Below, piece by piece: positions 19,369 through 63,675 of a DNA stretch of 64,000 bases. The number at the start of each line of letters is the position of its first letter. Position 1 is the stretch's first letter. Below the pieces are notes generated by a model that saw only the letters and a list, made by a program, of their open reading frames with translations, did no database searches and was not told where the DNA came from. The DNA comes from Patescibacteria group bacterium (GTDB lineage Bacteria > Patescibacteriota > Minisyncoccia > Phycocordibacterales > UBA12445). The position numbers and the translations under genes are program-made. The stretch is from contig DOAO01000007.1 of NCBI GenBank assembly GCA_003504275.1, forward strand, positions 75,535 to 139,534, in the 5' to 3' direction.

Positions 19369-20748
19369 ATGAAAAAAACAATATTTATAACCAGTTTTCA
19401 CAGTATAATCTCAAAAAATATTTTTAATTCTGATGTTTTAAAGATATTGTCTGAAGATAAGAATATAAATATTGTTATTTTTGTTCCCTCCCATAAAAAA
19501 GAATTATTTGAAAAATATTACAAGAGAGATAATATAATCTTTGAGGGGATAAATCTTGAACCCTTAATTAACTCCAAGATAAACACCTTTTTTTCAAGAA
19601 TATCTTTTTTGCTTATGGATTCTCACTATCTTTGGTATAAAAAGGCGGAAAGGTTGGAGACTGCAAAAAACTTGAGGGGATATTTAAAATATTATTATGA
19701 AATTGTTTTTACAAAAATACTCAGCGGACACCGATTTGTAAATAACTTTTATAGGTTTTTTGATTACCTATTTACACCAAAGAATTTTTTCAAAAAATAT
19801 TTTGATGCATATAATCCTAACATGGTTTTTGTAACAGATCTTTTTGATAAGACTGATTCCGCCTTCTTAAGAGAAGCTAAATCTAACAAGGTTTTTTCAA
19901 TAGGAATGGTTAGATCTTGGGATAATTGCTGGAGTAAGGGGCTGATGAGAGTTTTGCCTGACAAATTTATTGTGAATAATGAAGTGATCAAAGATGAGAT
20001 CGTTTCAATGCACAATGCAGATAAAAAAAATATATTTGTTGGCGGGTTGCCACAATTTGATAAATTTTTATCTATGGACTTGGGCTCAAGAAAAGATTTT
20101 TTTGAAAAGTTGAAAATAAGGGAAGATAGAAGATTATTAATGTTTTCCCCATTAGGATATTCTTTATCGGACGTTGATTGGGAGATACTGCAGATTTTTA
20201 AAGATGCAATTAAAAATGGTGACCTACCTGAAAATATTCAATTTTTAATCAGAATGCATCCTGGCAGACCGTTGCCACTTAAGGATTTCACCCCAGACGA
20301 TCATTTTTATTTTGATAAACCAGGAATCGGAGAAGGAAAGGACGTGGAATTTCGACCAGACGACGTTGAGCATTTAGCCAAATCACTTTATTTTTCAGAG
20401 ATAATAATATGGGTAGCAACGACCCTGGGCTTAGATGCAGCTGTCTTTAATAAACCACAAATAGTTGTTAATTTTGATGGCTGGGAAAAACGCGAATATA
20501 TCAATAGTGTACGTAGATATCATAATGAGAACCATATGAGAAAAATGATAGACTGCGGAGGTGTAAAAGAGGTTTTAGACAGAGAATCTCTTATTGAGGC
20601 TATAAATAAATATTTAAACAATCCTTCTCTTGATCAGACCGGTAGAGACGCAATGGTAAAACAACAGCTCTATAAAATAGACGGTAGGTCAGGAGAGAGA
20701 ATAGCCAATTTTATTTTGAGTGAATTAGAAAAAATAGACAAAAAATAA
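19369..20748 (+). CDS. hypothetical GT-B-like protein (possible CDP-glycerol/capsule-type glycosyl- or glycerophosphotransferase)
   Basis: C-terminal IIIWVATTLGLDAAVFNKPQIVVNF resembles the Glyphos_transf / capsule biosynthesis family. Weak. Confidence 0.3.
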   Translation: MKKTIFITSFHSIISKNIFNSDVLKILSEDKNINIVIFVPSHKKELFEKYYKRDNIIFEGINLEPLINSKINTFFSRISFLLMDSHYLWYKKAERLETAKNLRGYLKYYYEIVFTKILSGHRFVNNFYRFFDYLFTPKNFFKKYFDAYNPNMVFVTDLFDKTDSAFLREAKSNKVFSIGMVRSWDNCWSKGLMRVLPDKFIVNNEVIKDEIVSMHNADKKNIFVGGLPQFDKFLSMDLGSRKDFFEKLKIREDRRLLMFSPLGYSLSDVDWEILQIFKDAIKNGDLPENIQFLIRMHPGRPLPLKDFTPDDHFYFDKPGIGEGKDVEFRPDDVEHLAKSLYFSEIIIWVATTLGLDAAVFNKPQIVVNFDGWEKREYINSVRRYHNENHMRKMIDCGGVKEVLDRESLIEAINKYLNNPSLDQTGRDAMVKQQLYKIDGRSGERIANFILSELEKIDKK

Positions 20749-22483: not shown

Positions 22484-24139
22484 CTACATATTTAGAATAT
22501 CTTCTATTCTCCCATTGTCTATTTTTTTTCTTGCCTCCAGAAAAATTTCGTTAGACATTTCGCTGAAGTTAAGTGGTTCTCCATTCTTGTCCAATAATAC
22601 TTTTGTTGCATCATCCAGTTCAAGAACATAATTTTGAAGCTTGTCGTCGAAAATCAGCTCTCTTTTATTGCTGAATTTTATTTCAAAATGCTTGTTAAGA
22701 ATCTTTGTGACATGGGGGTCGCTAAACATCCTTGTTCCAGGATAAGCCGTCGCAGTAAACATCTTTTTATTAATTGAGCCAACTGCAATTTTATGAGACT
22801 CTGTGCCTGGAGTTAATTCTTTAGAGACATTTTCTATCTGCCACAGTATGAAAGAAACACTCTTCTTTAAGTCATTAAGTGTTTCTCCTGGGTAACCCAT
22901 TATCCAAGTGCAGTTTGAATGTATTCCGTAAATTAGGCAGTTGTTTATTCCCTCAATCATTGTTCTTGGGAATTCAAAATCATAACCAGGTATTTTAATC
23001 ATACCTTTTTTGAGTATAAATCCACCCTTCCCCATTTTCTCTAGTATTTTTTTACTCGCACTTTCTGCGCCAAAACCTATATAAATGCACCCAGAGTCAG
23101 CCATATCCTTAAGTCTTTCGTCGGCCTCATCTATTCTTGTGTGCGTTCCCCAGCGAAGTTCAATTTCTTTGAATAATAGGGGTAGCAATTTTAATCTTTT
23201 TGTATCAACGGCAAAATTGTCGTCAGGATACCCAAGAAAATCTATTGCATATTTATCCTTAAGTATTTTTGCCTCCTGAAAAAGATTTTCAGCGCTTCTC
23301 ATTCTGTAATTTCTCTCCCCCTGAGAACCACGATAACAAAAAGCACAGTTGTATGGACAACCTCGGCTACTGACCGTAGTAAGACTTTTTTTCATTGTAA
23401 ATGGTGTAGCAGAACTATTATTCGCTGACCCACCCCAAACTGGAGTGTCAATGTACCAATCAAGGAGTCTATTACCAAAAACATCTACTTCAAGTAAATC
23501 TAGCGCAGGAAGGGGTAAAGAATTAAGGTCTTTGGGTCTGCTACCGGGGTATAAGAAGCGATGCCTACCATTAATTTTACCAAAATAGAAAGGAGAATTA
23601 AGGTTACGATCAAAATTATTAAACGCCCCATTTTTCTTGAGATCCAAAATCTCTTTAGCGATTACCAGGATAATATCGTCTCCCTCTGAGTGCCCGATAG
23701 CATCAATGTCATTTATCCAATTAAAGAGTTCGCCACGGATTTCGGTTGCAAGTCCTCCTCCAGAAATCATAAATGATTGTGGACTCGTTTTTCTACAAAT
23801 ATTGGCCACAATTTTTTGCCATCTTAGCGTTGTAATCATTCCAGAGAGGGCGATAATGTCTGGTTCGCCAAATTTATTGAAATGGCTTTCCAGGAGAAAT
23901 TTCACCTCATTCTCTGTGAGGTGTCTTCCCAAAGAAGCTCTTTTGGCTTCCGATAATTCATCAATTATACGATAGGCGTTAAGATCAACAATAGAAACAT
24001 CCGCTCCGTGGCTTCTAAGTCTGGATGCGAGTAATAGTGGTCCTTGTGGTGGTACATTTGGCCTAGCCATCTCCCTTAATGGCATATTAATGAAAACAAC
24101 ATTCAAACCTCTTAGTTCAGAAAATTCTTTTATGATCAT
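22484..24139 (-). CDS. B12-binding domain-containing radical SAM protein
   Basis: N-terminal cobalamin-binding Rossmann-like region. Radical SAM CxxxCxxC = CPYNCAFC. Confidence 0.7.
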   Translation of the reverse strand: MIIKEFSELRGLNVVFINMPLREMARPNVPPQGPLLLASRLRSHGADVSIVDLNAYRIIDELSEAKRASLGRHLTENEVKFLLESHFNKFGEPDIIALSGMITTLRWQKIVANICRKTSPQSFMISGGGLATEIRGELFNWINDIDAIGHSEGDDIILVIAKEILDLKKNGAFNNFDRNLNSPFYFGKINGRHRFLYPGSRPKDLNSLPLPALDLLEVDVFGNRLLDWYIDTPVWGGSANNSSATPFTMKKSLTTVSSRGCPYNCAFCYRGSQGERNYRMRSAENLFQEAKILKDKYAIDFLGYPDDNFAVDTKRLKLLPLLFKEIELRWGTHTRIDEADERLKDMADSGCIYIGFGAESASKKILEKMGKGGFILKKGMIKIPGYDFEFPRTMIEGINNCLIYGIHSNCTWIMGYPGETLNDLKKSVSFILWQIENVSKELTPGTESHKIAVGSINKKMFTATAYPGTRMFSDPHVTKILNKHFEIKFSNKRELIFDDKLQNYVLELDDATKVLLDKNGEPLNFSEMSNEIFLEARKKIDNGRIEDILNM

Positions 24140-24320
24140 ATTACCCCTCCTCTTCTTTATTTTAAGTTTTCAAAGTTCAGACTATTTTAAATTATAAAAG
24201 CACATAAATGGTATTTTTACAATAGCAACATAACAATTAAGATAGAAGATTATTCAATAATCGTGTTTAGATAATAGATGTGCCCAGTTTTTCTTATCTT
24301 ATGCCGAATAATAATTAAAA

Positions 24321-24342
24321 GCCGACTCTTGTGAGAGTCGGC
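24321..24342. terminator. hairpin terminator downstream of the small radical SAM gene
   Basis: GCCGACTCT-TGTGA-GAGTCGGC with A/T runs on both sides. Confidence 0.5.
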
Positions 24343-24350
24343 AAAATTTT

Positions 24351-25154
24351 TTATGTGGAAGTGGGTACGCCCCAGAATTCACATTTAGCGCAAAGGGGAA
24401 TTCCTGCTCTTTTTCCTTGCTTATGGAGTTCGAGCCACTCAAGTCTCTGTTTACCATTCCATATCTCGGCTAGGGTATTTTCATTTACATTGCCTATGAC
24501 TCCGAGATGGTTTGGGTCGAATCTGACACAGATTGAGACATCTCCTGTAATACTGATGCAAAGATGGCTAAGAAAGTCGAGACATATTCCTATTTCCGGT
24601 ATTGTGGGATTTTTTTTCTGATACTTGAAACTTCCCATTGGATGATGTAGAACCCTCTTTACCATAAGAAGTCCAAGGTGTTCATACCCCTTAGGATCAA
24701 TTTCCCCGATGAGACGAAGGTTCGTAAACGGTTTTCTATTTCCTTTTATTTTTACGAATTCTTCGATTATTTTGAGCTGTTCTTCTGCTTCGGTGTCCCC
24801 TTCAAATATTGAAATAGACATCGTATCGAGGTTGTCAATTATCTCGTCGGCTTTTTTGATGAGCAGTTTTCCGTTGGTTGTAATGCTTTTAATTTGTCTT
24901 GTAAATAATTTTAAGGCGTCGCCAAATCTGGGATAGAGTAGACCTTCTCCGTCTTTGTGAAATTGAACCACAATGTTTGAAGGAAGTTGCTCTGCTATTT
25001 TACGCAGTATTTCAAAGTCGGCGTCACCATATTTAAGCGTAAGTTCCGGAAAATCCTTTTCTACTTTTCTTCTGCCACACATCCAACATTTTTTGTTGCA
25101 CCTATTTGTGAGCTCAACATTGACGCAGTTAAGACCAAAAAGCCCTTTTTCCAT
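24351..25154 (-). CDS. radical SAM protein with C-terminal Cys-rich (SPASM/twitch-like) region
   Basis: CNKKCWMC (CX3CX2C) near the N-terminus. C-terminal CxxxxxxC...CAKCEFWG. Confidence 0.65.
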   Translation of the reverse strand: MEKGLFGLNCVNVELTNRCNKKCWMCGRRKVEKDFPELTLKYGDADFEILRKIAEQLPSNIVVQFHKDGEGLLYPRFGDALKLFTRQIKSITTNGKLLIKKADEIIDNLDTMSISIFEGDTEAEEQLKIIEEFVKIKGNRKPFTNLRLIGEIDPKGYEHLGLLMVKRVLHHPMGSFKYQKKNPTIPEIGICLDFLSHLCISITGDVSICVRFDPNHLGVIGNVNENTLAEIWNGKQRLEWLELHKQGKRAGIPLCAKCEFWGVPTST

Positions 25155-25161
25155 ATTTATT

Positions 25162-25170
25162 CCCCCCCCC
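25162..25170. repeat. homopolymeric tract C9 on plus (G9 on minus) forming the RBS of the radical SAM gene
   Basis: On the minus strand: AAGGGGGGGGGAATAAATATG. Nine G ending 7 nt before the start codon, in a very AT-rich genome. Confidence 0.6.
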
Positions 25171-25323
25171 TTATTTTCAAAGTCCTAAGTTGACAAAAGA
25201 TTAACATCTTATTAATTATTTGTCAAAAAATAAAAATGATTTTCGTTGACGCTACTTTATTAATGTGATATCTTCATTCTTAGGTCTTGGAACTTTTACA
25301 ATAAAAAAGAAGGGGGAGATATT

Positions 25324-26187
25324 ATGGCTATTAAGATTGGAAACAGGCTTGTGGGCCTCGGTCACCCGTGTTTCATTATCGGAGAAATAGGCATCAATCA
25401 CAATGGTGATGTTGCTGTCGCCAAAAGGCTTATCGAGGTTGCTAAGAATGCTGGATGTGACGCAGTTAAGTTCCAGAAAAGAACAATTGATATCGTCTAC
25501 CGGCCCGAAGAACTGGCTATGCCAAGGGAAAATCTTTTTGGTAAAACGAATGGCGATCTCAAGCGCGGACTCGAATTCGGTCAGAAAGAATATGAAGAGA
25601 TTGATCGTTATTGTAAGGAAATCGGCATCATATGGTTCGCTTCTCCGTGGGACGAGGACAGTGTTGATTTTCTCGAACAGTTTAATCCGCCCTGCTATAA
25701 AGTAGCTTCCGCTAGTTTGACTGATAGCGGTCTTTTGTCTCATATTAAGACGAAAGGAAGGCCGATTATCTTATCGACAGGCATGAGCACAATGAAGGAA
25801 ATCGAGTACGCATTCAAGGTTCTGGGAAAGGAAAATTTAATAATTCTTCACACCGTTTCCACCTATCCTTCAGAAAATGACGAGTGCAATCTCGCTGTTA
25901 TGGGAACTCTCAAGAACAAATTTAAAGATGTTCCTATTGGATATAGCGGACACGAGAGGGGTATTGTAATTTCTGTAGCGGCTGTTGCACTCGGTGCTTG
26001 TGTTATAGAGAGACATATTACCCTTGATCGCGCAATGTGGGGTTCTGATCAGGCGGCGAGTATTGAGCCAAAAGGTCTCGAACTTTTGGTCCGCGATATT
26101 CGTATGGTCGAGACAGCTATTGGAAGTCCCGAGAAAAAAGTTTACGAAAAAGAGATAGCGATAAAGAAGAAACTCCGCAGAAAATAA
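25324..26187 (+). CDS. neuB: N-acetylneuraminate synthase family (NeuB/PseI/LegI-like nonulosonic acid synthase), short form without obvious SAF domain
   Basis: FIIGEIGINHNGDVAVAKRLIEVAKNAGCDAVKFQKRT is the NeuB N-terminus. 287 aa. Strong SD GGGGGAG upstream. Confidence 0.75.
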   Translation: MAIKIGNRLVGLGHPCFIIGEIGINHNGDVAVAKRLIEVAKNAGCDAVKFQKRTIDIVYRPEELAMPRENLFGKTNGDLKRGLEFGQKEYEEIDRYCKEIGIIWFASPWDEDSVDFLEQFNPPCYKVASASLTDSGLLSHIKTKGRPIILSTGMSTMKEIEYAFKVLGKENLIILHTVSTYPSENDECNLAVMGTLKNKFKDVPIGYSGHERGIVISVAAVALGACVIERHITLDRAMWGSDQAASIEPKGLELLVRDIRMVETAIGSPEKKVYEKEIAIKKKLRRK

Positions 26188-27606: not shown

Positions 27607-27864
27607 ATGTACTGCTATGTCTATGTTTTGAGGTCTGATAAGGATGGTAAAATGTATACTGGTTATACAAATAATTTAAAATTTAGATTTGATAGTCACA
27701 ATAAGGGTCTAGTGTTCTCAACAAAAAACAGAAAACCTTTTAAATTGATATATTTTGAGGGGTGCTTAAATCAACAAGATGCGACTAGGCGTGAAAAATA
27801 TTTGAAGACTATTTATGGAAAGAGGTTTATTAAAAGCAGGATCAAATCTTATTTAATAGGGTAA
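27607..27864 (+). CDS. GIY-YIG nuclease domain protein
   Basis: CYVYVLRSDKDGKMYTGYTNNLKFRFDSHN carries the GIY...YTG core. 85 aa. Confidence 0.55.
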   Translation: MYCYVYVLRSDKDGKMYTGYTNNLKFRFDSHNKGLVFSTKNRKPFKLIYFEGCLNQQDATRREKYLKTIYGKRFIKSRIKSYLIG

Positions 27865-27927
27865 ATGAAAAATAAATACAAGATAGGGGTGGCGGGGGTT
27901 GGGATGGTGGGTGTTCAGGTGAGATAA
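27865..27927 (+). pseudogene. duplicated 5' fragment (20 codons) of the downstream UDP-glucose dehydrogenase-like gene
   Basis: MKNKYKIGVAGVGMVGVQVR* matches the start of the 28959 gene (KKGQYKIGVAGVGMVGVQAERW). A 37-nt stretch is identical (27883-27919 = 28992-29028). Confidence 0.6.
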
Positions 27928-27952: not shown

Positions 27953-28966
27953 ATGAAAAAGGAAAATAAAAATATTGATGAAAAATTAGATAGAGGAGAG
28001 ATAGCAATTTATCAAAATAAGGACAAGGGTGTTATCGTGGAGGCTAATCTTAAGGAGGATACTATTTGGCTTACACAAGCTCAAATAACAGACATTTTCG
28101 GAGTAGACAGAAGCGTCATAACTAAGCATATTCGTAATATATTTAAAGACGGGGAGCTAGAAGAAAAAAGCAATGTGCAAAAAATGCACATTGCTAATTC
28201 TGATAAATTGGTTAATTTTTATAACTTAGACATGATTCTCTCTGTTGGTTATAGGGTTAATTCTAAACAGGCAACACAGTTTAGGGTTTGGGCGACAAAG
28301 ACTCTCAAGGAACATATCATTAAGGGATACACGTTAAACAGTAAAAGATTGGAGGAGTTGAAGGGAAAGCAGTTAAACGAATTTGAACAAGCGATTGGCC
28401 TAATAAAAAAAACCATAGACACAAAGATTCTTTCTGGAGGAGAAGAGAGTGGTCTTTTGAAGGTCATTACCGAATACGCTAATTCCTGGTTACTCTTACA
28501 GAGATATGATGAAGATGGACTGACTCTACCAAGGAAGGTAAAAAAGCCTACTTTTTCTCTTAAATATGATTTTGCGCAATTGGCTATTTTTGATTTGAAG
28601 AGAGATTTAATGAAGAAGGGAAACGCAAGTGAGCTTTTTGGTACCGAAAGGTCAAGTCTTCAGGGTATAATAGGAAATATCTACCAAACTTTTGGTGGTT
28701 CTGAATTGTATTCAAGTATAGAAGAGAAAGCGGCTCATCTTCTTTACTTTGTTATCAAGGACCATCCTTTTGCTGACGGAAATAAACGTATAGGCTCTTT
28801 TTTGTTTATTGTTTTTCTTGCACAGAATAAACATCTTTTTAGAAAGAATGGGGATAAAAAAATAAATGACAACGCTCTTGTTGCGGTTGCTTTGCTTGTA
28901 GCCGAAAGTGAGCCTTCACACAAAGATACTTTAATAAAATTGATAACAAATTTAATTAGTGATTAA
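27953..28966 (+). CDS. RhuM-family (virulence RhuM) / Fic-DOC fusion protein
   Basis: N-terminal RhuM-like region (IWLTQAQITDIFGVDRSVITKHIRNIF...SVGYRVNSKQATQFRVWATKTL). C-terminal Fic motif HPFADGNKRIGS (HxFx[DE]GNKR). Confidence 0.65.
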   Translation: MKKENKNIDEKLDRGEIAIYQNKDKGVIVEANLKEDTIWLTQAQITDIFGVDRSVITKHIRNIFKDGELEEKSNVQKMHIANSDKLVNFYNLDMILSVGYRVNSKQATQFRVWATKTLKEHIIKGYTLNSKRLEELKGKQLNEFEQAIGLIKKTIDTKILSGGEESGLLKVITEYANSWLLLQRYDEDGLTLPRKVKKPTFSLKYDFAQLAIFDLKRDLMKKGNASELFGTERSSLQGIIGNIYQTFGGSELYSSIEEKAAHLLYFVIKDHPFADGNKRIGSFLFIVFLAQNKHLFRKNGDKKINDNALVAVALLVAESEPSHKDTLIKLITNLISD

Positions 28967-29834
28967 AGCCATGAAAAAGGGGCAATACAAAATAGGGGTG
29001 GCGGGGGTTGGGATGGTGGGTGTTCAGGCAGAAAGATGGTTCAAGTCAAAGGGATTTGAAGTTTTTGCTTATGATAAATTCAAAAATATTGGAAAAGAGG
29101 AAGATCTGCAGAAAGCCGATTTGATATTTTTGTGTTTACCTACTCCCCATAAGGATAAGGTTAATACGGGGGTGGATATTTCAGTATTTTTTGATTTTTT
29201 GAAGAAGTTTAAAGAACCAAAGATATTTGTAATCAAGTCCACCGTTCCGCCCGGAGCGACCGAGGCAATACAAAAGAAATTTCCCAAACACAAATTCTTA
29301 CATAGTCCGGAGTTTTTGACCGAAGCCACCGCTTGGAAAGATTTTTCAAAACCTGTATTTCAGCTTCTTGGATATACAGAAAAAAGTAAAGATGTGGCTC
29401 AGAATGTTTTAGATATTCTTCCAAGGTCTAAAAAAACAAATTTATTAATGAAGTCTTCTGAGACAGAGGTATTCAAATTTGCACGAAATGCATTCTTTGC
29501 TGTTAAGGTTGTTTTTGCTAATCAGATATATGATATTTGTAAATCTTTTGGCGGTGATTACGATATTATAAAAAATTTAATGCTTTCCGATCCTTGGATA
29601 GGAGGACATCATTTGGAGGTGATTCATAAAGGGTATAGGGGGTTTGGAGGTAAGTGTCTTCCAAAAGATCTCAAGACTTTCATAAAGGTATTTAAAACCA
29701 AAAAATTAAAGCCAGAATTATTTGAAGCGACCGATAGAATCAATGATGGTCTTATAAAAAAACAAAAACTCACAAAAACCTTGAATAAATATTGGTTGGG
29801 AAATTACAACGAGCCCGATTTAGTAAAATTTTAA
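28959..29834 (+). CDS. UDP-glucose/GDP-mannose dehydrogenase family protein, short form (N-terminal NAD-binding and central domains only)
   Basis: N-terminal KIGVAGVGMVGV Rossmann motif. GFGGKCLPKDL catalytic Cys region near the C-terminus. Ends ~100 aa earlier than canonical ~430-aa enzymes. Confidence 0.5.
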   Translation: MIKAMKKGQYKIGVAGVGMVGVQAERWFKSKGFEVFAYDKFKNIGKEEDLQKADLIFLCLPTPHKDKVNTGVDISVFFDFLKKFKEPKIFVIKSTVPPGATEAIQKKFPKHKFLHSPEFLTEATAWKDFSKPVFQLLGYTEKSKDVAQNVLDILPRSKKTNLLMKSSETEVFKFARNAFFAVKVVFANQIYDICKSFGGDYDIIKNLMLSDPWIGGHHLEVIHKGYRGFGGKCLPKDLKTFIKVFKTKKLKPELFEATDRINDGLIKKQKLTKTLNKYWLGNYNEPDLVKF

Positions 29835-42757: not shown

Positions 42758-43660
42758 ATGGAAGAGCTCAACAAGACACAAATAATTCTTTTGGCAATAT
42801 TTATCACTTTGGTTACTTCGGTAGCGACGGGTGTTATTGTTGTTACTCTAATGGATCAGGCACCACCCGGGGTTACTCAGACAGTAAATAGAGTTGTTGA
42901 AAGAACCATTGAAAGAGTTATTTCTCCCGGAAAAGTAGAAAAAACTGAAGTTAAACAAATTGTGAGGGAGGACGATACAATTGTTTCTTCTGTGAAGACT
43001 GTAAGACAATCTCTTGTAAAAGTTGTCAGACAGGGTGCTTCAAGCGATGTTGCTTTTAGTAATCCGGACTTACAAGTATCTTCTATTTCTGGGTCAATAG
43101 AAAGCTCCAGTTTGGCTTCTGGTTATTTGGCAGTAGGAGAGGACGTTAGCAGGGTGGGCTTTATTGTTTCTGGGGATGGATTAATTATGACAAGCAATGA
43201 AGTTCTGGGGGGAAGCGGTTCCGCCTATTACGCTATTTTAGGTGATTCAAAATATAATCTTAAGTTTATAAAGAGTAATGATTATAATGGAATTGCGCTT
43301 TTCTCAATGGAGCAAGCTCCTAAGGGATTAGTCCCAATAGATGCTTTGTCTATAGATCAAGTATCTTTAGGACAGACAGTAATAACGCTTGGATTTGATT
43401 CAGGATTGAATACTTTAACAATGGGTTATATTTCCGGTCTTAAGGTTGGTAACGCATCTTCAACACCTATAATTAAGACGAGTATTAGACCAACAGAAAA
43501 TTGGAGCGGTAGACCAATTATAGATATAAATGGATTTTTGATTGGAATGTATGGTTCGGATAATGACGTCGTACCTTATGTAGTTGTAAAGAATTTAATT
43601 GATTCTTCCAACCCAAAAACAGGCGGAAATAACGCTACCTCAACAAAAACTTCTCAATAA
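42758..43660 (+). CDS. membrane-anchored trypsin-like serine protease (HtrA/S1C-like, no obvious PDZ)
   Basis: N-terminal TM. Asp IALFSM region. NWSGRPIIDINGFLIGMY resembles the GNSGGPL catalytic Ser context. Confidence 0.5.
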   Translation: MEELNKTQIILLAIFITLVTSVATGVIVVTLMDQAPPGVTQTVNRVVERTIERVISPGKVEKTEVKQIVREDDTIVSSVKTVRQSLVKVVRQGASSDVAFSNPDLQVSSISGSIESSSLASGYLAVGEDVSRVGFIVSGDGLIMTSNEVLGGSGSAYYAILGDSKYNLKFIKSNDYNGIALFSMEQAPKGLVPIDALSIDQVSLGQTVITLGFDSGLNTLTMGYISGLKVGNASSTPIIKTSIRPTENWSGRPIIDINGFLIGMYGSDNDVVPYVVVKNLIDSSNPKTGGNNATSTKTSQ

Positions 43661-56958: not shown

Positions 56959-57153
56959 ATGCCAAGATTAGATGGAACAGGCCCAATGGGCCAGGGGCGT
57001 GGTATGGGTCGTGGGCAGGGGGGGGTTGGGAGAGGACGTCGGGGTTTTTCTCAGAACCAAGTTAGAAAACTTGATGGAACAGGCCCAATGGGTCAGGGAC
57101 CAAGAACTGGCAGAGGGTTGGGAAATTGTCCCGCTTCTGATAAAAGGGTTTAG
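56959..57153 (+). CDS. DUF5320-family small Gly-rich protein
   Basis: MPRLDGTGPMGQGRGMGRGQGG...LDGTGPMGQGPRTGRGLGNCPAS with an internal repeat and a C-terminal Cys. Confidence 0.55.
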   Translation: MPRLDGTGPMGQGRGMGRGQGGVGRGRRGFSQNQVRKLDGTGPMGQGPRTGRGLGNCPASDKRV

Positions 57154-63479: not shown

Positions 63480-63675
63480 GTGGATAACTTTTGCACCCTC
63501 GTCACCGTCATTGCGAGACGAGGCGCATTGCCCAGTAGTGAGCTCTGCTCTACTACCTTGGGTCCTAGCCGAGTCGTGGCAATCCCCGTCGACCAATCCA
63601 GGAATCCATTCCCGTTTCCGTCATTGCGAAGGCTTTAGCCTGTGGCAATCCAGACTGAGTTTTTTATGATATTAT
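63480..63675. repeat. cluster of GTCATTGCGAG / GTGGCAATCCAGA palindromic repeat motifs (same family as 8377, 29896, 32770)
   Basis: GTCATTGCGAGACGAGG...GTCGTGGCAATCC...CCGTCATTGCGAAGGCTTTAGCCTGTGGCAATCCAGACTGAG followed by a T-run. Confidence 0.5.

Follow-up and report, generated by a model that had tools for sequence, protein, structure and literature searches.

A nine-guanine run in the leader of a radical SAM gene from a Parcubacteria genome as a probable fixed-length derivative of a Shine-Dalgarno sequence

A run of nine guanines lies in front of a small radical SAM/SPASM gene in the 64,000-nt stretch of Parcubacteria DNA analysed here (hereafter, the window). It is best explained as a run of fixed length, derived from a Shine-Dalgarno (SD) sequence and carried on an imported gene, that probably still serves as a ribosome docking site; we put the probability of this reading at roughly 0.6. 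The first-pass annotation had called the run both a ribosome-binding site and a candidate phase-variable switch. The SD position was confirmed, with the run aligning to the canonical AGGGAGGA of the nearest relative, and phase variation is unsupported. The run itself (hereafter, G9) was found on the minus strand as described, at 25170..25162, where the sequence reads TTGAAAATAA-GGGGGGGGG-AATAAAT-ATG and the start codon (25154..25152) begins 7 nt further 3'. The features discussed are collected in Table 1.

Table 1. Features of the G9 leader, the neighbouring genes and the GC-rich repeats. Coordinates refer to the window unless the flanking contig L174 is named; duplex energies are for the canonical 16S tail.
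Feature	Position	Strand	Remarks
G9 homopolymer (plus strand: C9), 5' leader of small radical SAM/SPASM gene	25162..25170	-	apparently SD-derived
A/U spacer AATAAAT, 7 nt, from tract to start codon	25155..25161	-	unchanged by slippage
Putative promoter	25198..25226	-	-35 TTGACA (25226-25221), 17-nt spacer ending TGt, -10 TAATCT (25203-25198)
Radical SAM/SPASM protein, 267 aa, leader bears G9	24351..25154	-	PF04055, PF13186
Intrinsic-terminator-like hairpin	24321..24342	-	9-bp stem with 6 G-C pairs, then TTTTAATTAT; just past the stop codon
G-rich SD GGGGGAG of the divergent NeuB-family gene (25324-26187)	25312..25318	+	-12.9 kcal/mol
G-rich SD GAGGAGGGG of the B12-binding radical SAM gene (22484-24139)	24144..24152	-	-13.9 kcal/mol
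Three-gene block: B12-radical SAM, small radical SAM, NeuB	22484..26187		sole SD-bearing set among 72 genes
GCAATGACGG-based repeats	63505-63627; L174 15006-15190 and 20354-20610		

The window has a G+C content of 35.4%. In dinucleotide-preserving shuffles a G9 match occurs 0.27 times per window on average and at least once in 17 of 100, and the three overlapping G8 matches seen in the window, against 0.89 expected, are reached in 9 of 100. The length of G9, somewhere in the window, is not significant alone, and since shuffling yields comparable runs it is the position rather than the length that calls for explanation. The non-random aspect is the placement of the run, exactly at the SD position and in a gene that is one of just three whose leader is G-rich. 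A sequencing or assembly artefact was ruled out, since the tract reads the same in three other assemblies and an independent relative can be aligned on either side of it.

The accompanying statement that the genome otherwise avoids G/C runs was correct only in part. The window holds one other run of eight and four of six (G8 at 57018, C6 at 48198, and G6 at 43207, 49274 and 52462). In the adjacent 18.8 kb of scaffold, three runs of eight and three of six were found. The count of such tracts that had been proposed as a check, made over 83 kb of scaffold, gave five G/C runs of at least eight, G9 included and the sole run of nine. Runs of eight occur about once per 17 kb, and four additional ones in 83 kb is a high density. 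Three of these four lie in GC-rich intergenic repeats, one lies in Gly codons and none falls in a glycan gene. The repeats, which carry C8 and G8 runs, are based on the motif GCAATGACGG, which occurs twice without mismatch in the window (63505 and 63618) and in 12 matches with at most one mismatch in the flanking contig L174, against 0.74 expected. A G8 at L174 20602-20609 precedes a GGTTTACAAT repeat cluster just upstream of a gene starting at L174 20708. The G8 at 57018-57025 is set within the Gly codons of a 64-residue Gly/Arg-rich ORF (56959-57153, plus strand) that carries two LDGTGPMGQG repeats, and a one-base slip there would shift its reading frame.

The origin of G9 was approached by comparison with related loci. 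Within the protein collection the closest relative shares 84% identity and is present on two short contigs (L083 and L084) with the same divergent arrangement of the NeuB gene. Alignment at the homologous place gives AGGGAGGA-TAA-ATG, versus G9-AATAAAT-ATG in the window. The intergenic DNA of the two aligns at two islands only, one comprising the promoter hexamers and the other the SD motif before the start. A relative at 75% identity (L085) carries GGAGAAGG at the SD position, and no run of more than five G was found in the 40 nt upstream of the gene in any of 154 orthologous loci. Because the nearest relative has AGGGAGGA and none of the orthologues exceeds five G, the alignments identify G9 as a lineage-specific derivative of a canonical SD sequence. 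The motifs of the two neighbouring genes, GAGGAGGGG and GGGGGAG, are spaced from their start codons as G9 is from its own, and an uninterrupted G run is only one or two transitions away from them. A search of the JGI metagenome collection for other tract lengths, using the exact flanks with a variable gap, returned no matches. Protein-guided scans of metagenome contigs and of GTDB species genomes returned nothing above 70% protein identity, and thus orthologues only and no same-species variants.

The use of SD sequences in the host was assessed by pairing the 22 nt upstream of 51 ORFs of the window with the canonical 16S tail, which was assumed, as the host 16S is not in the window (an Rfam search found no rRNA there). 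A further 21 genes from the scaffold flanks (L172 1-9545; L174 11541-20801) bring the total to 72. Duplexes of -11.8 kcal/mol or stronger with this tail were obtained for 3 of the 72 only: the small radical SAM gene, at exactly -11.8 kcal/mol, and its B12-radical SAM and NeuB neighbours (Table 1). No SD was found in the remaining 69, GroES/GroEL and SecA included; the 21 flank genes, among them GroES, GroEL and SecG, all belong to this group. The median duplex for genes of the window is -1.4 kcal/mol versus -3.0 kcal/mol for random genomic 22-mers, meaning that genes pair more weakly than the background. Several genes instead have a TATAAT-like box 7–10 nt before the ATG (for example window 60119, L174 12604 and L174 15323). 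The upstream sequences suggest that leaderless or non-SD initiation is widespread in this Parcubacteria genome. An anti-SD motif has been detected in only 48% of Parcubacteria 16S genes (PMC9297842), a figure that a host with few SDs fits.

The three SD-bearing genes have G+C contents of 0.379, 0.399 and 0.436 in the order given in Table 1, versus 0.346 +/- 0.030 for the other genes (z = 1.1, 1.8 and 3.0). In the closest GTDB relatives, NeuB, radical SAM and cytidylyltransferase genes form one co-directional operon; compared with the operon order elsewhere, both the window and L083 have NeuB in inverted orientation. Since the SD-bearing genes are contiguous, their G+C is raised and NeuB is inverted, the composition and layout of the block indicate that it was probably acquired horizontally, and recently, with ribosome-binding sites of the donor type retained.

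From the position of the putative promoter, G9 would fall in a 5'UTR of about 37–40 nt. In L083/L084 the sequence TTGACA-N17-TAGATT occupies the same place, while the remaining spacer has diverged. The promoter was not listed by a consensus scan, its -10 matching at only 3 of 6 positions, and the call draws on the sequence together with this one conserved relative. The terminator-like hairpin suggests that the small radical SAM gene forms its own transcription unit, so that any effect of the tract would be limited to this single enzyme. Taken with the first 60 nt of the coding region, the leader shows no more stable folding than shuffled sequences (z = +1.16). Both G9 and the AUG are unpaired in the minimum-energy fold, which is insensitive to the number of G. 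A riboswitch or structured leader was rejected, as the fold resembles those of shuffles and Rfam gathering scores were reached in the window by four tRNAs only. A part for G9 in the NeuB promoter was rejected likewise: on the plus strand the C9 lies at least 20 bp upstream of the nearest promoter-like -35, and the candidate NeuB promoter is not conserved in L083 and lends no support to a role of the tract there.

The effect of tract length was examined by computation. With the canonical 16S tail assumed, the predicted energy of the anti-SD duplex comes to -11.8 kcal/mol at all lengths between G8 and G13 inclusive and lies between -11.3 and -12.4 kcal/mol from G5 to G7; weaker pairing is predicted only when four or fewer G remain. 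Whatever the length, 7 nt separate the 3' edge of the tract from the AUG. With pairing equal and this edge fixed, slippage by one to several G would therefore leave SD strength and minimal spacing unchanged, and the idea that it would alter them was not borne out. As the tract follows the putative -10 and is not part of the ORF, it has no effect on reading frame or promoter spacing; in the computational test a change of one unit altered neither the frame, the -35/-10 spacing nor the SD.

Nine contigs carry the identical protein, and three distinct assemblies were read among them: ENA ERZ28564009 (SAMN03203005), ENA ERZ28564294 (SAMN03203004) and a Logan SRR3309375 contig recorded in two samples. 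All three, besides the window, have G9, at the level of the consensus, in which minority lengths are invisible. Two MEGAHIT contigs that end at 25094 and 25062 were considered as a hint of length heterogeneity. A branch caused by the tract would be expected to break the contig right there, but these end 68 and 100 nt away from it, and the same contigs break again at 20549-20572, far from any run; the hint was rejected on these grounds. Overall, the analysis gave no support to the proposed phase-variable switch: G9 is present in all three assemblies, none of the 154 orthologues has the tract, and SDs occur in 3 of 72 genes.

The assembly breaks are an observation in their own right. In contigs from the same population, L169 and L170 end at 20549 and L171 at 20572, with L170 and L171 starting at 25094 and 25062, respectively, and the L002 scaffold has an N-gap at 25415-25424. 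The segment of about 4.5 kb between the breaks may be common to strains with different flanks.

The G9 gene encodes a protein with 1642 homologues at E <= 1e-10. Among proteins of solved structure the closest is BtrN, a radical SAM dehydrogenase comparable in size, with a match at 2e-8 over residues 199-265 (the auxiliary-cluster domain). Identical proteins are on record as KKQ82353.1 (Parcubacteria group bacterium GW2011_GWF2_3...) and HBM45783.1 and occur in ENA re-assemblies of Rifle groundwater samples; the window is part of a 162,691-bp scaffold. By Pfam assignment the surrounding locus contains glycosyltransferases, asparagine-synthase-like amidotransferases, many methyltransferases, a pyruvyl transferase and a glycerophosphotransferase-like protein, together with a flippase, an O-antigen-ligase-like protein and the B12-binding radical SAM protein. 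The divergent NeuB-family synthase matches PF03102 (3.5e-81) and scores below the NCBIfam NeuB and PseI equivalog cut-offs. The cytidylyltransferase matches PF02348 (3.6e-25), and its nearest NCBIfam model is PseF, with a score below the cut-off. The nonulosonic-acid setting claimed at first pass is thus right at family level, given the NeuB-family synthase, the CMP-sugar-type cytidylyltransferase, the flippase and the methyltransferases. Judged from these domain matches, the locus is a nonulosonic-acid-type sugar locus by family-level assignment, both key enzymes falling below equivalog cut-offs.

The association of these genes extends well beyond the host. Within the few kb fetched around each of the 154 orthologous loci, a NeuB homologue was found in 80, a cytidylyltransferase in 72 and both in 58. 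The linked loci (L003-L166) span many phyla, among them Omnitrophota, Planctomycetota, Desulfobacterota, Saccharibacteria and archaea. A full-text literature search for radical SAM, nonulosonic acid and NeuB found no paper linking them.

Elsewhere in the window, a 45-nt direct repeat (44 of 45 positions identical, at 27875-27919 and 28984-29028) brackets a RhuM/Fic gene (27953-28966). The repeat encodes the Rossmann N-terminus KYKIGVAGVGMVGVQ of a UDP-glucose/GDP-mannose dehydrogenase-like gene, and a GIY-YIG gene (27607-27864) lies just upstream of it. From its sequence, the RhuM/Fic segment looks like a cassette insertion that duplicated the 5' end of its target gene.

In the preferred reading, G9 as a docking site derived from an SD, the three-gene block would have entered the Parcubacteria genome from a donor that uses SD sequences, and all three genes would have retained G-rich SDs. 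One or two A-to-G changes, small expansions or both could then have turned a GGGAGG-type motif into G9. The gene would be transcribed from its own promoter (25226-25198) into a monocistronic mRNA ending at the hairpin (24342-24321), and the leader of about 40 nt, computed to be unstructured, would present the G run. Computed with the canonical 16S 3' tail, this run could form G-C and G-U pairs with the CCUCC core in more than one register, 7–11 nt from the AUG. As the run exceeds the pairing core and its 3' edge is fixed, it would act as a redundant docking site and not as a switch. In favour of this reading are the complementarity to the canonical 16S tail with a 7-nt spacer and the positional homology with the SDs of orthologues; SD-led initiation is, however, not the norm of the host (3 of 72 genes). 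Use of the tract by host ribosomes depends on the 16S having kept its anti-SD, and it may be that the tract is not read as an SD.

The latter point leads to a neutral relic, which we consider unlikely, while giving it some weight. Here the host ribosome would lack SD pairing, the anti-SD having been lost or leaderless and A/U-rich initiation having become dominant, and G9, a decaying leftover of the donor SD, would no longer serve any function; initiation would depend on the A/U-rich spacer and on the leader being unstructured. Such a host would be expected to look much as this one does, with 69 of 72 genes devoid of an SD, upstream pairing below the genomic background, TATAAT-like boxes 7–10 nt before several ATGs that suggest leaderless mRNAs, and membership of a group in which an anti-SD has been detected in only 48% (PMC9297842). 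Relaxed selection would also allow GGGAGG to drift to a homopolymer. The persistence of strong and correctly spaced G-rich motifs in all three imported genes argues against a relic, as does the fact that the motif and the promoter hexamers are the sole conserved islands in comparison to L083, a pattern resembling selection, though perhaps selection in earlier hosts. A contingency tract appears improbable. Changes in G number by slippage would modulate expression of the radical SAM enzyme by way of SD register, the length of the leader or the behaviour of RNA polymerase on the run, so that a nonulosonic-acid-type surface sugar would be modified in a phase-variable or graded manner. That every assembly read shows G9 only speaks against this, even though a run of nine G is long enough for slippage and intrinsically prone to it. 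The tract is, as in contingency loci, a G run of at least eight just upstream of a gene in a surface-glycan locus, yet it does not recur at the same site in the 154 orthologous loci or in the 84% relative. It also lies outside both the ORF and the -35/-10 spacer. In its favour, upstream G tracts grade expression of uspA1 in Moraxella catarrhalis (PMC7302503), and a poly-G insertion in the 5'UTR alters translation of espR in Mycobacterium tuberculosis (PMC11898584). Against it, tract length between G5 and G13 makes no difference here to SD pairing, spacing or leader folding as predicted. The five G/C runs of at least eight within 83 kb also speak for a contingency tract, but the others, all of eight, are in GC-rich intergenic repeats or Gly codons and none is in a glycan gene.

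A frameshift switch in an upstream ORF can also be drawn, and is very remote. An ATG at 25207 opens a 16-codon ORF (MLIFCQLRTLKIRGGE; 25157-25207, minus strand) that contains the tract and stops at a TAA (25159-25157) 2 nt before the main ATG. In variant translations G10 fuses the two ORFs in frame with an 18-residue extension, and G8 and G11 run out of frame across the main start. The upstream ATG is, however, probably untranscribed because it lies inside the spacer of the putative promoter, L083/L084 have no ATG in the homologous stretch, and a scan of the minus strand of the intergenic region found no promoter-like site further upstream. Taken together as one proposal, a hypermutable contingency tract that tunes a BtrN-like enzyme for surface-sugar modification, or switches it through the upstream ORF, is a long shot. 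If true, it would give a Candidate Phyla Radiation (CPR) bacterium its first described phase-variable switch of a surface glycan; in a full-text literature search, no paper on homopolymer phase variation in Patescibacteria was found.

In comparison to a canonical SD of the GGAGG type, G9 is similarly purine- and G-rich, is set 7 nt before the AUG and pairs at -11.8 kcal/mol with the canonical 16S tail. It differs in being an uninterrupted homopolymer, in a genome where 69 of 72 genes lack an SD, and as a homopolymer it needs G-U wobbles for SD pairing, which are possible in several registers. The poly-G contingency tracts of Campylobacter jejuni, in flagellin-glycosylation, capsule and lipooligosaccharide loci, are mostly inside ORFs and act through frameshifts; their length differs among members of a population, and related strains carry such tracts too. 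The likeness to them consists in a G run of at least eight, a low-G+C genome and a locus with a NeuB-type nonulosonic-acid gene. In contrast, the tract described here is outside the ORF, invariant in the assemblies read and absent from orthologous loci.

Two 5' tracts are closer in position. For uspA1 of M. catarrhalis, G(n) length variation and graded transcription have been demonstrated experimentally (PMC7302503 and its reference 20); both tracts are homopolymeric G upstream of a coding region and leave the reading frame unaffected, whereas G9 abuts the start codon, shows no variation in the assemblies read and is known from sequence. In M. tuberculosis espR an extra G lengthens a G/C hairpin, refolds the leader and changes translation (PMC11898584). 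Both espR and the present gene have a G homopolymer in the 5'UTR able to influence translation, but the leader here is without predicted structure and its folding is insensitive to tract length. By analogy, uspA1 and espR indicate that a 5' tract can matter; variation and effect are demonstrated there, while G9 is a sequence observation.

In the preferred reading, G9 is an ordinary ribosome-binding motif turned homopolymer and is not to be counted as evidence of phase variation in the CPR. If reads showed length heterogeneity, one could ask whether episymbiotic ultra-small bacteria vary their surfaces stochastically. The linkage of radical SAM/SPASM, NeuB and cytidylyltransferase genes across phyla points to an uncharacterised, probably anaerobic, step in the synthesis of ulosonic-acid sugars. 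For the host itself, the probably imported SD block offers a natural experiment on the continued ability of such ribosomes to pair with SDs.
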